The notes beneath the pieces are model-generated. The model was not told the DNA's origin and did no database searches. It saw only the letters and a list, made by a program, of their open reading frames with translations. The position numbers and the translations under genes are program-made. A stretch of DNA of 64,000 nucleotides from Escherichia phage Killian: the sequence record OQ446694.1; one strand, written 5' to 3'. Shown piece after piece: positions 13,318-18,807 of this stretch. The first letter of the stretch is position 1, and every line of letters begins with the position of its first letter.

Positions 13318-13620
13318 TTATTTACCTTTAATTACTTTAGCTGCTTCGATAGCCGCTTGCTGAAGGTCATCCATAGACATACCGAATTTAGAAGCAAAGT
13401 TATCAATTTTCTTTTCGACAGCATTCAAAGGCTTGGCCTGTTTACCTTCATTAGCGCCAGGAAGAGCGAGAATACGCTCTTTGTCAATATAAAGGCTTAC
13501 AAGTTTCTTACGGTCTTTATCGGACAAATCGTGAAATGAATGGGCCTTTTTATTTATAGCGGCTTCTAATTTACCTGCACTCACTCGCGCTTCAGTAATA
13601 AATTCTTGATATGTTTTCAT
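13318..13620 (-). CDS. ipII: Internal protein II (capsid-packaged, CTS-bearing)
   Basis: 100 aa; N-terminal capsid-targeting sequence MKTYQEFITE (gp21 cleavage after I-T-E); position between denV and e. Confidence 0.75.
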   Translation of the reverse strand: MKTYQEFITEARVSAGKLEAAINKKAHSFHDLSDKDRKKLVSLYIDKERILALPGANEGKQAKPLNAVEKKIDNFASKFGMSMDDLQQAAIEAAKVIKGK

Positions 13621-13691
13621 ATGTTTCCTTTAAATATTTTAATTAGTAATTGTGAATATATTATCGCAGTTTTAGGAGAAAATAAACAACT

Positions 13692-14186
13692 TTATAGATT
13701 TTTATACGCATCCCAAGTGCCAGTCCTAAACGTAGCGATGACTCGTTTTGCACGGTTAGGTGTTTGATTATACCATCTACTTTTAGCTAAGTTAACTGCT
13801 GCTTCATCCCAGCGTTTTTGCTGGAGCATGCGTAAAGAATTAGTAAATCCTGCTACGCCGGTTTCTCCCATTTGGAAGACCATGTTAATCAATGCACAGC
13901 GGCGAACAGCATCAAGAGAATCATAAACTGGTTTTAATTTAGCATTTCTCAGAATTCCGCGAACAGCAGCATCAACATCCTGATTAAAGAGTTTTTCAGC
14001 CTCATCTTTTGTAATTACACCATTGCAATTACGCCCAATAGCTTTATCTAATTCAGATTTAGCAACACTTAGTGATGGACTTTTAGTAAGCAAATGACCA
14101 ACGCCAATAGTGTAATAACCTTCTGTGTCTTTATAGATTTTAAGTCTAAGACCTTCATCTATACGTAACATTTCAAATATATTCAT
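13692..14186 (-). CDS. e: T4-type lysozyme (endolysin)
   Basis: 164 aa [35 protein letters not shown]... with catalytic Glu11/Asp20/Thr26; near-identical to T4 lysozyme. Confidence 0.98.
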
Positions 14187-14199
14187 AATACCTCCTAAG

Positions 14200-14220
14200 T
14201 ATTTATAGAAGGTATTTATA
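14200..14220 (-). promoter_or_regulatory. Two tandem late promoters (TATAAATA x2) in front of gene e
   Basis: Plus strand tatttata at 14200..14207 and 14213..14220, i.e. TATAAATA on the coding (minus) strand; AGGAGG SD follows. Confidence 0.7.
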
Positions 14221-14222
14221 AA

Positions 14223-14678
14223 TTAAAAGAGGTTGTTCATTATTCTGTAAAGTGAAGGACCCATCACATATTGCCACTGAGTACGAGGAATAAGAGCAAA
14301 AGCATCCATCTCTGGAATCATAACGCCATCTTTATTTTCAAAATAAGACTCGCAATGGCAATTTCTAAACATCTCATGCTCTACTGGAATCGTATAATAA
14401 AATAACTGTAAGTCTTTATTACTAGAATATTTAAATACACCTAAGTCTTCTAGAAGGTCTGGATTATAATTGCTAAAGCCAGTCTCTTCTAAGCATTCTC
14501 TTCGTGCTGCATCTAGTGCGCTTAAATCAGAACTTTCTACACGCCCCTTTGGAATATCCCAGCGATGTGCCATCATTCCAGGCTTACGAGAACCAGTAAC
14601 CCGTCCCATGAATAAATCTTTATCTTCTGTCATAAAGATAATACCAGCTGATAGTGTTTTCATTTTAATTTCCTGCAT
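14223..14678 (-). CDS. nudE: Nudix hydrolase NudE
   Basis: 151 aa; Nudix box GRVESSDLSALDAARRECLEETGF. Confidence 0.85.
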   Translation of the reverse strand: MQEIKMKTLSAGIIFMTEDKDLFMGRVTGSRKPGMMAHRWDIPKGRVESSDLSALDAARRECLEETGFSNYNPDLLEDLGVFKYSSNKDLQLFYYTIPVEHEMFRNCHCESYFENKDGVMIPEMDAFALIPRTQWQYVMGPSLYRIMNNLF

Positions 14679-15148
14679 TCAGTGATAAAGTTATTTAAAT
14701 TTTGAGTATATTTCTTTTCATCAAAAATCTTTTGTTGTCTGCGCATCCGCCATGGCATTTCAATGAACATGTACCATATTCCTGATAATATTGATGCTGT
14801 AAAAATATTAACAAGTATGGTTAAAAGAATCCAATCTCCTATTCTGTCCATTGGATTTTTTATAAAAAAGTAAAATACGAATGATGACACAGGAAGACTA
14901 ATGATATACCACAGAATCATAATCTTATCTGTGAACCATTCAGCATTCGTTAACTTAGCACGACCATTATGAATACACACGAATTTATCATCTGTTACAG
15001 TAGATGGCTTAACTGCTTGATATCCCATTCTAAACTCCCTAATTAATCGTTTCTTTGTATCTTCAGAACAGCCGCTCCAGTCAACTCTATCAACTGAAAT
15101 GCCATCGTCCCCATCATCTAAATCATACCAGTGAGTTTTTAAAATCAT
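14660..15148 (-). CDS. Membrane protein (e.2 position), C-terminal FITECRKLK tail
   Basis: Two hydrophobic helices; C-terminal motif shared with the next three genes. Confidence 0.55.
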   Translation of the reverse strand: MILKTHWYDLDDGDDGISVDRVDWSGCSEDTKKRLIREFRMGYQAVKPSTVTDDKFVCIHNGRAKLTNAEWFTDKIMILWYIISLPVSSFVFYFFIKNPMDRIGDWILLTILVNIFTASILSGIWYMFIEMPWRMRRQQKIFDEKKYTQNLNNFITECRKLK

Positions 15149-15519
15149 TTAATTTTCCTACAATCACTCACAAACTCTTCCATTGATTCTTTTTCAATAT
15201 AAGACATATAGCTATTATATTCCTTTAATTGTATTTTGTAATCCTTTTTTCTTTGCCAATTTATTTTAAAATTATCATAATGAAAATATAACATGGTACC
15301 AAAGAATGAAAATAATGAAATTGCTATAGTATAATGAAGTTCACTCCAAACTTCTATTATATCTACTATACCGCTGACGTTACTGCGGATGTTTAAAATA
15401 AAACAGTCAATTAACAATCCAATAAAACTACCCGCAAGAGCTGCAGCCAATGCCACAGCAAAAATTGAAAATGACTCAGAAAAAGAATATTTGACTTTAT
15501 TTAGTTTTGGCTTTTGCAT
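15145..15519 (-). CDS. Membrane protein (e.3 position), C-terminal FVSDCRKIK tail
   Basis: Two TM helices; shared C-terminal motif. Confidence 0.55.
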   Translation of the reverse strand: MQKPKLNKVKYSFSESFSIFAVALAAALAGSFIGLLIDCFILNIRSNVSGIVDIIEVWSELHYTIAISLFSFFGTMLYFHYDNFKINWQRKKDYKIQLKEYNSYMSYIEKESMEEFVSDCRKIK

Positions 15520-17153: not shown

Positions 17154-17684
17154 TTATATCATACTATTTAAGAGATGTAAACTATTTTTAATTTTACAAA
17201 TTCGTTCAGCTTCTTCAACAGCGGCGGCGATAATGCTTTTAGCTATAGGAGTATTAATACTAGTAGCTTTTACACTTAACACGATTTCTTTATCTTTACT
17301 AGGCCAACCCCACGATTTTTCACCATGAGTGCCTTTAATTACAGCAGACACCTCAAGTGAGCATCCATTATCACATGTTTTTACATTAACAACCCAAGGG
17401 TCACTTTTCTCAACCGGTTTATCAATCGGTTTATCCCAGTAAATATTAAGAATACGTGGGACATCAAATTTAGCAGGGCAAATCTTAACCGTAAGACCTT
17501 CGCTTTCTAGCCAATTAATAAGAGGGCGTTCATACATGCGGCGATGTGGGCTTCGGACTCGACAAGCCTTGTGCCCATTGCTTGCGGCTTCACTAAGCTG
17601 TTCTAATACCTGCTTTTGCATTATTGATAAGATACCATCAAAAGATTTTTCGGAAGTTTCATTCAGTTCTGTATAAAGAGACAT
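17154..17684 (-). CDS. Hypothetical protein (176 aa, e.7 position)
   Basis: ORF track; GAGGAAA SD. Confidence 0.55.
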   Translation of the reverse strand: MSLYTELNETSEKSFDGILSIMQKQVLEQLSEAASNGHKACRVRSPHRRMYERPLINWLESEGLTVKICPAKFDVPRILNIYWDKPIDKPVEKSDPWVVNVKTCDNGCSLEVSAVIKGTHGEKSWGWPSKDKEIVLSVKATSINTPIAKSIIAAAVEEAERICKIKNSLHLLNSMI

Positions 17685-17739
17685 AACGGTTTCCTCAAGT
17701 TACAGGCTCATAATATCTCAATCATGAGCCTGTGTAAAC

Positions 17740-18003
17740 TTATTTCATATTATTAAAATATTCTTCTGCGATTTCGTCGTTATCATGGTAAACTTTAGAA
17801 GACAGTTTAACATAACCTTCAGCAGTGAACATGTTAATCACAACATTTACAGTATACCACTGACCATCTTCATTACCCATTACTGCGTAAGTTTCAAACA
17901 TCGGATGATCAGGACCGATAACTTTAATATCATTCACTGTACGACCGAAATCTTCTGAAACGCATTTCATAAAGAAGTTGAACAGTTCGCCGTAATTATC
18001 CAT
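17740..18003 (-). CDS. Small hypothetical protein (87 aa, e.8 position)
   Basis: Track ORF starts inside the promoter cassette (MVLYNYQL artefact); true start ATG 18003 with GGAGAA SD. Confidence 0.5.
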   Translation of the reverse strand: MDNYGELFNFFMKCVSEDFGRTVNDIKVIGPDHPMFETYAVMGNEDGQWYTVNVVINMFTAEGYVKLSSKVYHDNDEIAEEYFNNMK

Positions 18004-18047
18004 TTCATTCTCCAAGTTGTTTTTCTGTATCAGTAGTTGATAGTTGT

Positions 18048-18076
18048 ATAGTACCATGGAAGAACAGGGATGTAAA
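18048..18076 (-). promoter_or_regulatory. Sigma70-type phage early promoter cassette
   Basis: Minus strand GTTTACA-N17-TGGTACTAT. Confidence 0.7.
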
Positions 18077-18208
18077 CAGTTTTGTGAAAAATTTTTTAAA
18101 AAGTTTTAGGGAATTCTAGGGAAGGGAGGGGCAATTAAAGGATAGGATAATATATTATAAAGGGTAGAAACTAAATGATGCTTAGAGAGGTCCAGAAAGG
18201 CCTAGATA

Positions 18209-18235
18209 CCAAAAAGCCCTATCATTTAGATAGGG
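18209..18235 (-). terminator. Rho-independent terminator (CCCUAUC-loop-GAUAGGG plus U5)
   Basis: 7-bp stem and T-run on minus strand just 3' of the 18244..18807 gene. Confidence 0.7.
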
Positions 18236-18243
18236 ATTTAAAA

Positions 18244-18807
18244 TTATTTATCTAGTTTAGTTATTATAGCTTCTGCGGCAGCTTTTAGCTTAGATGCAGT
18301 GTTAATACGATTTTTAATTTCAGTATACGCATCGCCAAGAACATCAAGGCTATCAGAATAAACACTTACACTATTGCGTTCGCTATTTGAAATAAAACCT
18401 TTAGTTTTACGATCAAAATCGGTGTACACGTCTTGAAGATCACGGGCAGCCTTCTTTGCATCATCCAATGCATCAAGAGCTTTATTCAAAGCATTAACAT
18501 ATTTTTTAGTGTCAAACATATTCTTAGAAATTTTAACAGGTGCACGTTCAGGAGTAGCTAAGGCAGATTTAGGAACCTGAGCGCCAGATGCCAATTTCTT
18601 AGAAATTTTGAAAAACGCTTTATTGAATTTATTTTCTTGACTCATCGTAAAAGAACTATTATCGATGTTATACATTTCAATAGCTTTAGCTTTCCACTTA
18701 AGAAAATCGCCACGGTCTTTTGGGTCTAATTGAAAGAATACTTTAGTAAGATCTGCTTCAGACGGTAATTTTGCTGCTTCGGTCAAAAATTCGGCATAGG
18801 TTTTCAT
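18244..18807 (-). CDS. Capsid-targeted internal protein (CTS-bearing, 187 aa; IPIII-like in size)
   Basis: N-terminus MKTYAEFLTE is a capsid-targeting sequence with a gp21 protease site (L-T-E); basic, low-complexity mature region. Confidence 0.65.
   Translation of the reverse strand: MKTYAEFLTEAAKLPSEADLTKVFFQLDPKDRGDFLKWKAKAIEMYNIDNSSFTMSQENKFNKAFFKISKKLASGAQVPKSALATPERAPVKISKNMFDTKKYVNALNKALDALDDAKKAARDLQDVYTDFDRKTKGFISNSERNSVSVYSDSLDVLGDAYTEIKNRINTASKLKAAAEAIITKLDK

Follow-up and report, generated by a model that had tools for sequence, protein, structure and literature searches.

A conserved gene with a capsid-targeting tag between e.8 and the stable-RNA genes of Escherichia phage Killian, a candidate for a third internal protein locus

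Of the internal proteins (Ips) of T4-like phages, Ip1, Ip2 and Ip3 have the leader alone in common, and inhibit one GmrSD type IV restriction enzyme each, a different one in every case (PMC12373910); Ip3 is what T4 needs for growth on ECOR17 (PMC9391042). Truncation and suppressor experiments with IPIII revealed that its first 10 residues suffice, positions 4 and 7 being responsible for targeting and positions 8 and 10 for processing; the protease gp21 cleaves after L/I-X-E, and the 10-residue tag alone is enough to load foreign proteins (PMC9026906). The Ip repertoire has been described in terms of "two Ip loci" (PMC12373910). Here we describe a gene for a tagged protein of 187 amino acids in a stretch of 64,000 nucleotides from Escherichia phage Killian (OQ446694.1), referred to below as the window, in which ipIII is missing from the place that it occupies in T4.

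The region stems from a T4-like coliphage (Tequatrovirus) and encodes the genes considered here on its minus strand. Its closest relatives are the Escherichia phages UGKSEcP2, PBM-1, UGKSEcP1 and EPIMAM01 (98–99% identity across 98% of 6.7 kb). The 187-amino acid open reading frame (ORF) is situated outside both recognised Ip loci (denV-e and tRNA.4-57B), between e.8 and the rnaC terminator; the two loci are a positional convention and not a mechanistic requirement. We consider it probable that its product is a packaged and injected protein encoded at a third Ip locus, and that the loss of ipIII was a separate indel.

The tagged gene, its cassette and its family

The coordinates of the relevant features are collected in Table 1. 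An initial annotation of the window had placed an ORF with a capsid-targeting N-terminus between e.8 and the stable-RNA/tRNA operon, and both this position and the start MKTYAEFLTEAA were borne out. The protein possesses Y4, F7, L8, E10 and A11, that is, all of the experimentally defined tag determinants. L8-T9-E10 is the sole [LI]xE site in the sequence and is followed by the small residue A11. The predicted mature product has 177 amino acids, a mass of 19.7 kDa and an isoelectric point (pI) of 9.46. A six-frame scan of the whole window with the pattern M[KR][TS][YF]x[EDQ][FYL][ILVM]xE matched three ORFs only: ipII, the 187-amino acid ORF and the 77-amino acid Ip of the ipI locus. Since the chance expectation of this pattern in 64 kb is, by a rough estimate, about 0.002, the match in the 187-amino acid ORF is not a chance one. 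Besides gp21, the window encodes gp22, gp68 and gp20 (98.5%, 99% and 99% identical, respectively, to their T4 counterparts by tblastn), and also gp67.

Table 1. Positions of the genes and signals discussed in the text (a slash in a protein sequence precedes the residue following the tag)
Feature	Position	Strand	Basis or remark
denV	12709-13260	-	gene order
43-nt direct repeat, copy 1	13273-13315		repeat search; between ipII and denV
ipII (100 aa, MKTYQEFITE/A)	13318-13620	-	PHROG 7857 "internal virion protein"
e-to-ipII spacer, 71 bp	13621-13691	-	early-type promoter-like GTTTAT-N17-GATAAT/TATATT and leader ATTTAAAGGAAACAT
43-nt direct repeat, copy 2	13645-13687		88% identical to copy 1; the pair flanks the ipII cassette
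e (lysozyme, 164 aa)	13692-14186	-	ORF list; tblastn, 96% identity to T4 e region
nudE	14223-14678	-	gene order
e.2-e.8 set, last member e.8	17740-18003	-	e.8 96.6% identical to T4 e.8 (nucleotides)
Cassette terminator (CCCTATCTAAATGATAGGG and T-tract)	18212-18235	-	the insertion seen against T4 has its downstream edge within the GGGCTTTTT of this terminator
187-aa ORF, candidate internal (packaged) protein	18244-18807	-	PHROG 2280
Capsid-targeting sequence MKTYAEFLTE (codons 1-10)	18778-18807	-	predicted gp21 cut after E10 (L8-T9-E10/A11)
Shine-Dalgarno AAGGA	18814-18818	-	6 nt before ATG
Second ATAAAT-containing motif GATAAATT	18831-18824	-	sequence read
AATAAATA, A(-13) variant of T4 late promoter TATAAATA	18846-18853	-	38 nt upstream of ATG
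Terminator of tRNA/stable-RNA operon (AGCCCCGACCGAAAGGTTGGGGCT and T-tract)	18897-18925	-	upstream edge of cassette; dG -21.7 kcal/mol, z -3.9
rnaC	18976-19114	-	blastn against annotated T4 rnaC, 98% identity
rnaD	19121-19237	-	blastn against annotated T4 rnaD, 93% identity
tRNA-Arg	19242-19318		
segB	19322-19987		
Six further tRNAs	20029-20526		
ipI-locus Ip genes	22695-23262	-	
 77 aa (MKTFKEFIAE/S)	22695-22928	-	
 85 aa (MKTFKEFATKTTITE/S)	23005-23262	-	
Gene 21, prohead protease	52227-52862	+	tblastn, 99.5% identity to T4 gp21 over 212 aa

The protein belongs to PHROG 2280, a family of unknown function (E = 2.5e-53 over residues 1–181 of 187). An alignment (A3) of 12 family members, comprising the 187- and 157-amino acid types, a 204-amino acid metagenomic relative and the proteins of Yersinia phage fHe-Yen9-01 and of Klebsiella phages, has only five invariant columns, and M1, F7 and E10 account for three of them. 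Position 4 is always Y or F, while identity between the subfamilies is 16–30%. The dN/dS values (nonsynonymous over synonymous divergence) for seven alleles of the 187-amino acid gene are 0.03–0.13, with dS up to 0.21; they show a real gene, subject to strong purifying selection.

On the minus strand the cassette consists of the operon terminator, the late promoter variant AATAAATA, a ribosome-binding site, the tagged ORF and a terminator. The last of these, which the initial annotation had also attributed to the gene, is a hairpin at 18235–18217 (dG -11 kcal/mol, z -3.5), and both flanking terminators fold significantly better than shuffled sequences. In T4, GGGGCTTTTT runs straight into GGTATCTA with no insert, the terminator of the tRNA/stable-RNA operon (AGCCCCGACCGAAAGGTTGGGGCTTTTT) passing directly to GGTATCTAAGCC and then to e.8. 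An insert of approximately 690 bp separates the GGGGCTTTTT of this terminator from a further terminator tail, TAGGGCTTTTT/GGTATCTAGGCC, in the window and in RB14, so that the insert sits between two GGGCTTTTT terminator tails. A perfect TATAAATA was looked for upstream of the ORF and is absent; the paralogous cassettes have one at the place equivalent to AATAAATA. The A(-13) variant is the commonest accepted one, found in 9 of 50 listed T4 late promoters (PMC2988020), and its presence suggests that the gene is transcribed late.

The 187-amino acid gene was detected by tblastn in 164 phage records, its product being at least 95% identical in 163 of them and 84.5% identical in the other. RB14 carries it at the same map position (RB14ncORF136c). 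A 157-amino acid paralogue (MKSYAQFLNE/AVLNE/A) also matches PHROG 2280 (E = 4e-60) and is present in 512 phage records; the PHROG profile and alignment A3 are all that links the two subfamilies. Both genes are labelled "hypothetical protein" in all of the 120 records listed. In UGKSEcP2, Salmonella phage F13076 and three IMG/VR loci (L009–L011; L009 and L010 by tblastn only) a 157-amino acid cassette is located upstream of the 187-amino acid one. In UGKSEcP2 the operon terminator is followed at once by a perfect TATAAATA, the 157-amino acid ORF and a duplicated operon terminator (AGCCCCAGCCGAAAGGTTGGGGCTTTTTAG) which abuts the 187-amino acid cassette; upstream of the 157-amino acid ORF of F13076 the junction of terminator and TATAAATA is the same. 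Four states of the site were found: no cassette (T4 and PST, the latter annotated by the Krisch laboratory), the 157-amino acid type alone (fD1), the 187-amino acid type alone (the window, RB14 and, in split form, RB69), and both.

The site is conserved across genera. In RB69 (Mosigvirus) the 187-amino acid type occupies the same position, and its leader is nearly identical. T4-like Klebsiella phages carry a 177-amino acid member (MKFKEFLAE/A) after the tRNA cluster and upstream of e.6-like and NUDIX (nudE homologue) genes, the junction reading ...GGGGGCTTTTTAG/TATAAATA..., that is, terminator and then late promoter. In Yersinia phage fHe-Yen9-01 two members, of 189 and 178 amino acids (MLQYNEFLKE/S and MLEYSEFLKE...), stand in tandem downstream of tRNAs. 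The succession of terminator, late promoter and tagged ORF is thus, as judged from the DNA, a conserved feature of a third locus. The RB69 homologue (L006, 13429–13991) is split into ORF149c (146 amino acids, with the tag) and ORF148c (61 amino acids), which may reflect a frameshift, a pseudogene or a sequencing error.

A word-indexed homologue search returned only proteins at least 88% identical and fragments, and an exhaustive phmmer search of 1.8 billion representatives gave five hits, of which P0013 alone was distant (31% identity, N-terminus MITFNEFLNE). No prior naming of the 187-amino acid gene as an Ip was found in a search that did not take in the paper from which the Ip nomenclature stems (Repoila et al. 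1994). The gene in the window is 100% identical in nucleotide sequence to the F13076 copy (L004, 7001–7564), and differs at dS 0.12–0.17 from the alleles carried by the phages most closely related overall to the window (UGKSEcP2 and RB14-type), which points to a recent mosaic exchange of the cassette.

Possible role of the 187-amino acid protein

By analogy with the known Ips we infer packaging, cleavage, injection and an anti-defence function. Once made from the predicted late transcript, the protein would be steered by Y4 and F7 of the tag into the prohead scaffolding core. There gp21 would cut after L8-T9-E10, leaving the basic 177-amino acid protein with the predicted neo-N-terminus AAKLPSEADLTK. 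This would be packaged alongside the DNA and injected when the phage next infects a cell, and its most likely task, as with Ip1, Ip2 and Ip3, would be to neutralise a host defence. The 157-amino acid paralogue of phage fD1, g140, has been scored as phage-particle-associated with liquid chromatography coupled to tandem mass spectrometry (PMC8309999 Table S3).

Several observations weigh against this proposal. Specificity is low in the fD1 proteome, which lists 137 of 277 products as particle-associated, among them DenV, lysozyme and NudE (PMC8309999), and papers on phages SH7, Sfk20, pSs-1 and others contained no usable proteomic support for the 187-amino acid protein. The predicted late promoter is a one-mismatch variant. 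Canonical ip genes (ipII, ipIII, Ip4, those of the ipI locus and those of RB69) nearly all follow an early-type promoter-like GTTTAC-N17-TAtAnT and not TATAAATA, the exceptions in the window and the other loci examined (L001, L002, L004 and L006) being cassettes directly after another gene; the expression timing of PHROG 2280 genes, with their late promoters, would differ from that of the canonical ones. The high conservation of the protein in 163 of the 164 records is unlike that of a fast-diversifying arms-race inhibitor. An AlphaFold2 model reached a moderate pLDDT of 66.7, and a Foldseek comparison of it with BFVD returned same-family members only and no functional hint. The best sequence-profile matches in the PDB, to helices of the signal recognition particle M-domain, included nothing below E = 0.02 and were judged spurious.

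With moderate confidence, the model suggests a small helical domain at the N-terminus (residues 17–73), a disordered Pro/Ala/Lys-rich linker (75–96) and, at the C-terminus, a long helical hairpin (100–186). Pfam gave sub-threshold noise only for the protein, and NCBIfam no match.

The alternative that survives best is a packaged protein with a role inside the head, either in neutralising the charge of the DNA or organising it, or as an accessory of the scaffolding core, rather than an injected anti-defence factor. A basic (pI 9.5), largely helical protein whose chain includes a Pro/Ala/Lys-rich linker and a long hairpin of helices would suit such a role, as would the unusually strong conservation with low dN/dS and the occurrence of the family across genera with different DNA modifications, RB69 for example. 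The gene is, however, dispensable: T4 and PST are without the family at this site, the RB69 copy appears frameshifted, and the cassette is an accessory one, present or absent like those of the known anti-restriction Ips. We regard a head-internal role as rather unlikely.

There is a smaller chance that the tag is vestigial or coincidental and that the product is a late cytoplasmic protein which is not packaged. The location outside the two recognised Ip loci (PMC12373910) would agree with this, as would the uniform "hypothetical" label in the GenBank records listed. Yet all four functionally defined tag residues are present, M1, F7 and E10 have stayed invariant while the rest of the protein falls to 16–30% identity, and elsewhere in the 64 kb the tag pattern occurs only in known Ip genes. 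Moreover, ten residues suffice to load foreign proteins (PMC9026906) and the 157-amino acid paralogue is listed in fD1 particles (PMC8309999).

The 187-amino acid ORF is accordingly presented here as a credible but unproven internal protein gene, from a family which is not annotated as such. Four Tevenvirinae groups have the family at this site: Tequatrovirus, the RB69-like phages, the T4-like Klebsiella phages and Yersinia phage fHe-Yen9-01. We tentatively propose, with less confidence than we have in packaging and injection, that the junction of the stable-RNA terminator with e.8 could be a third, hitherto unrecognised Ip locus in at least these four groups, supplying one or two tagged, late-expressed and injected PHROG 2280 paralogues that disarm a defence not covered by Ip1-3. 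Their target might be, for example, another GmrSD/type IV restriction variant or some other first-response system. If this is true, the family offers ready-made candidates for new injected anti-defence proteins, and the annotation of T4-like phages would be improved. Members of this tag-bearing family are present in hundreds of sequenced coliphages of the therapeutic type. The tag makes the prediction of packaging cheap and immediate to test by virion mass spectrometry. Because it can be tested at once, and because Ips have recently come into focus as anti-restriction factors (PMC12373910), we consider the gene to be of moderate interest.

The denV-e site and the relationship to IPIII

The T4 order denV-ipII-ipIII-e, as given in the initial annotation, is that of NC_000866. 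In the window ipII is followed directly by e, with the short spacer (71 bp) that had been noted and no ipIII between them. In an alignment of 86 residues the ipII product and T4 IPII are 94% identical. A blastn search of the 64 kb with T4 ipIII found none of its DNA except 32 nt at the start of ipII, which belong to the shared tag codons.

Alignment with T4 and UGKSEcP2 shows that the spacer between e and ipII corresponds to the T4 e-to-ipIII spacer, not to the one between ipIII and ipII. In T4 two 74-nt direct repeats (the leader ATTTAAAGGAAACAT and the first tag codons, 84% identical) are spaced 697 bp apart around ipIII, and a 31-nt promoter-like repeat has the same spacing (697–698 bp). 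Recombination between repeats of this type would remove exactly the body of ipIII and give the arrangement in the window, that is, the T4 "e-ipIII" spacer fused to the body of ipII. The ip cassettes between denV and e are bounded by near-identical leader and tag sequences, and repeat recombination would add or remove a whole cassette; in the window itself a pair of 43-nt direct repeats flanks ipII. Modular shuffling between conserved regulatory motifs is known for the hyperplastic regions of T4-like phages (PMC4122927). The missing ipIII is an ordinary cassette indel, an event separate from the 187-amino acid gene. The exact ipII/e junction is not a common one: of 466 matching records, no more than 9 cover at least 80% of a 241-bp probe; most of the matches are to other ip genes and extend over the leader only. 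It is present in the nearest relatives of the window. By inference from the loss of ipIII, the phage would be sensitive to the ECOR17 GmrS1/GmrSD2 system if it possesses no other inhibitor.

Within the ipII coding sequence (13551–13558, minus strand) there is a perfect late-promoter octamer TATAAATA, a candidate promoter. It arises by a G-to-A change relative to T4 (GCTGTAAATAAA to GCTATAAATAAA).

The 187-amino acid protein was initially described as IPIII-sized, and physically this holds: the predicted mature protein compares with 183 amino acids, 20.4 kDa and pI 9.65 for IPIII. In sequence the two have nothing in common beyond the tag. BLASTP aligns residues 1–12 and finds no other significant similarity; T4 IPIII belongs to PHROG 5341, to which the 187-amino acid protein has no match; and a tblastn search with the latter at 1e-5 yielded no IPIII-type genes among its matches. 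They are physical analogues and not homologues.

IPIII is present in 261 records. Phage F13076 carries the identical 187-amino acid gene together with a 192-amino acid IPIII at the usual place, and Shfl2, EcNP1, PhAPEC2, phiE142 and vB_VIPECOOM01-03 appear in the record lists of both genes. This co-occurrence is documented by example phages; an IMG/VR scan returned only three loci. The content of the denV-e site in carriers of the 187-amino acid gene varies: ipII in the window and UGKSEcP2, Ip4 in RB14 and L009, ipIII with a 105-amino acid Ip in F13076, and none of the tested Ips in L010.

The suggestion that the 187-amino acid gene is an ipIII which moved and diverged could draw on the shared tag, the closeness in size and charge and the empty ipIII site, but is refuted, and to our mind wildly improbable, because the gene and a genuine ipIII occur together in at least six phages and have no homology (similarity ends at residue 12, and the families differ), while, in addition, its site is constant where the denV-e locus holds quite different Ips and its leader DNA and promoter type are unlike those of ipII and ipIII. 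Of the other suggestion made at the outset, independent acquisition, one part stands, namely that this is a separate tag-bearing family with a cassette of its own; the connection with the loss of ipIII beside ipII does not.

Other features of the window and comparison with known systems

At the ipI locus, the 77-amino acid Ip belongs to PHROG 8111 and has the same length as the annotated IpVI of PST. The 85-amino acid Ip equals the annotated Ip5 of RB14 in length and has a variant tag (MKTFKEFATKTTITE/S) with no E at position 10, the first I-x-E being at residues 13–15. The tag scan and the ORF list disclosed no further tag-bearing ORF at this locus, and ipI itself seems to be absent. The phage would possess four tag-bearing proteins, the 187-amino acid candidate included.

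The denV ORF has 183 codons versus 138 in T4, since the stop after ...YGKNIY has been lost and the frame reads on for some 45 codons, entering the beginning of the vs.8 homologue (12156–12746). A 552-bp denV coding sequence is likewise annotated in UGKSEcP2. Only DenV residues 1–86 match the Pfam pyrimidine-dimer glycosylase domain. The e.7 position is occupied by an unrelated ORF of 176 amino acids (PHROG 6869; 17154–17684, minus strand), and blastn with T4 e.7 gave no match in the window; at this position RB14, fD1 and PST have yet another small ORF (58 amino acids). An ORF of 210 amino acids (20533–21165, minus strand), which contains an HNH-like motif (LQLDHIDGNNKNH...CPNCHSQT; sub-threshold Pfam HNH match at E = 0.006), directly adjoins tRNA-Leu, at the place held by tRNA-Gln in T4, RB14 and UGKSEcP2. 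No tRNA-Gln was found anywhere in the window. This ORF looks like an insertion of a free-standing homing endonuclease gene into the tRNA cluster, in addition to segB.

In common with T4 IPI-III and Ip4-Ip6, the 187-amino acid protein has a 10-residue tag with Y/F4, F7, L/I8 and E10, followed by A or S, and a single gp21 site. Like IPII and IPIII it is small, and its mature form would be basic. As with the T-even ip genes, its gene is a dispensable single-gene cassette, polymorphic for presence and absence and bounded by repeated regulatory sequences. It differs from IPII, IPIII and the 77-amino acid Ip of the window in its PHROG (IPI and Ip4-Ip6 were not directly compared), and from the canonical ip genes in its third site, its late-type promoter and its far higher conservation. 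T4 IPIII, the inhibitor of the ECOR17 GmrS1/GmrSD2 type IV system, resembles it in tag, mature size and isoelectric point, but the sequences are unrelated; because both are found in the same genomes the 187-amino acid gene is neither an orthologue of ipIII nor a replacement for it.

The PeSL-type mobile regulatory cassettes of T4-like phages (Arbiol 2010; Comeau 2014, PMC4122927) are likewise single-gene indels with conserved terminator and promoter motifs at their boundaries; in the present case the junction is a terminator (GGGGCTTTTTAG) with a promoter directly after it. The PeSLs described have an early promoter, whereas cassettes of the 187-amino acid type have a late one (TATAAATA/AATAAATA).

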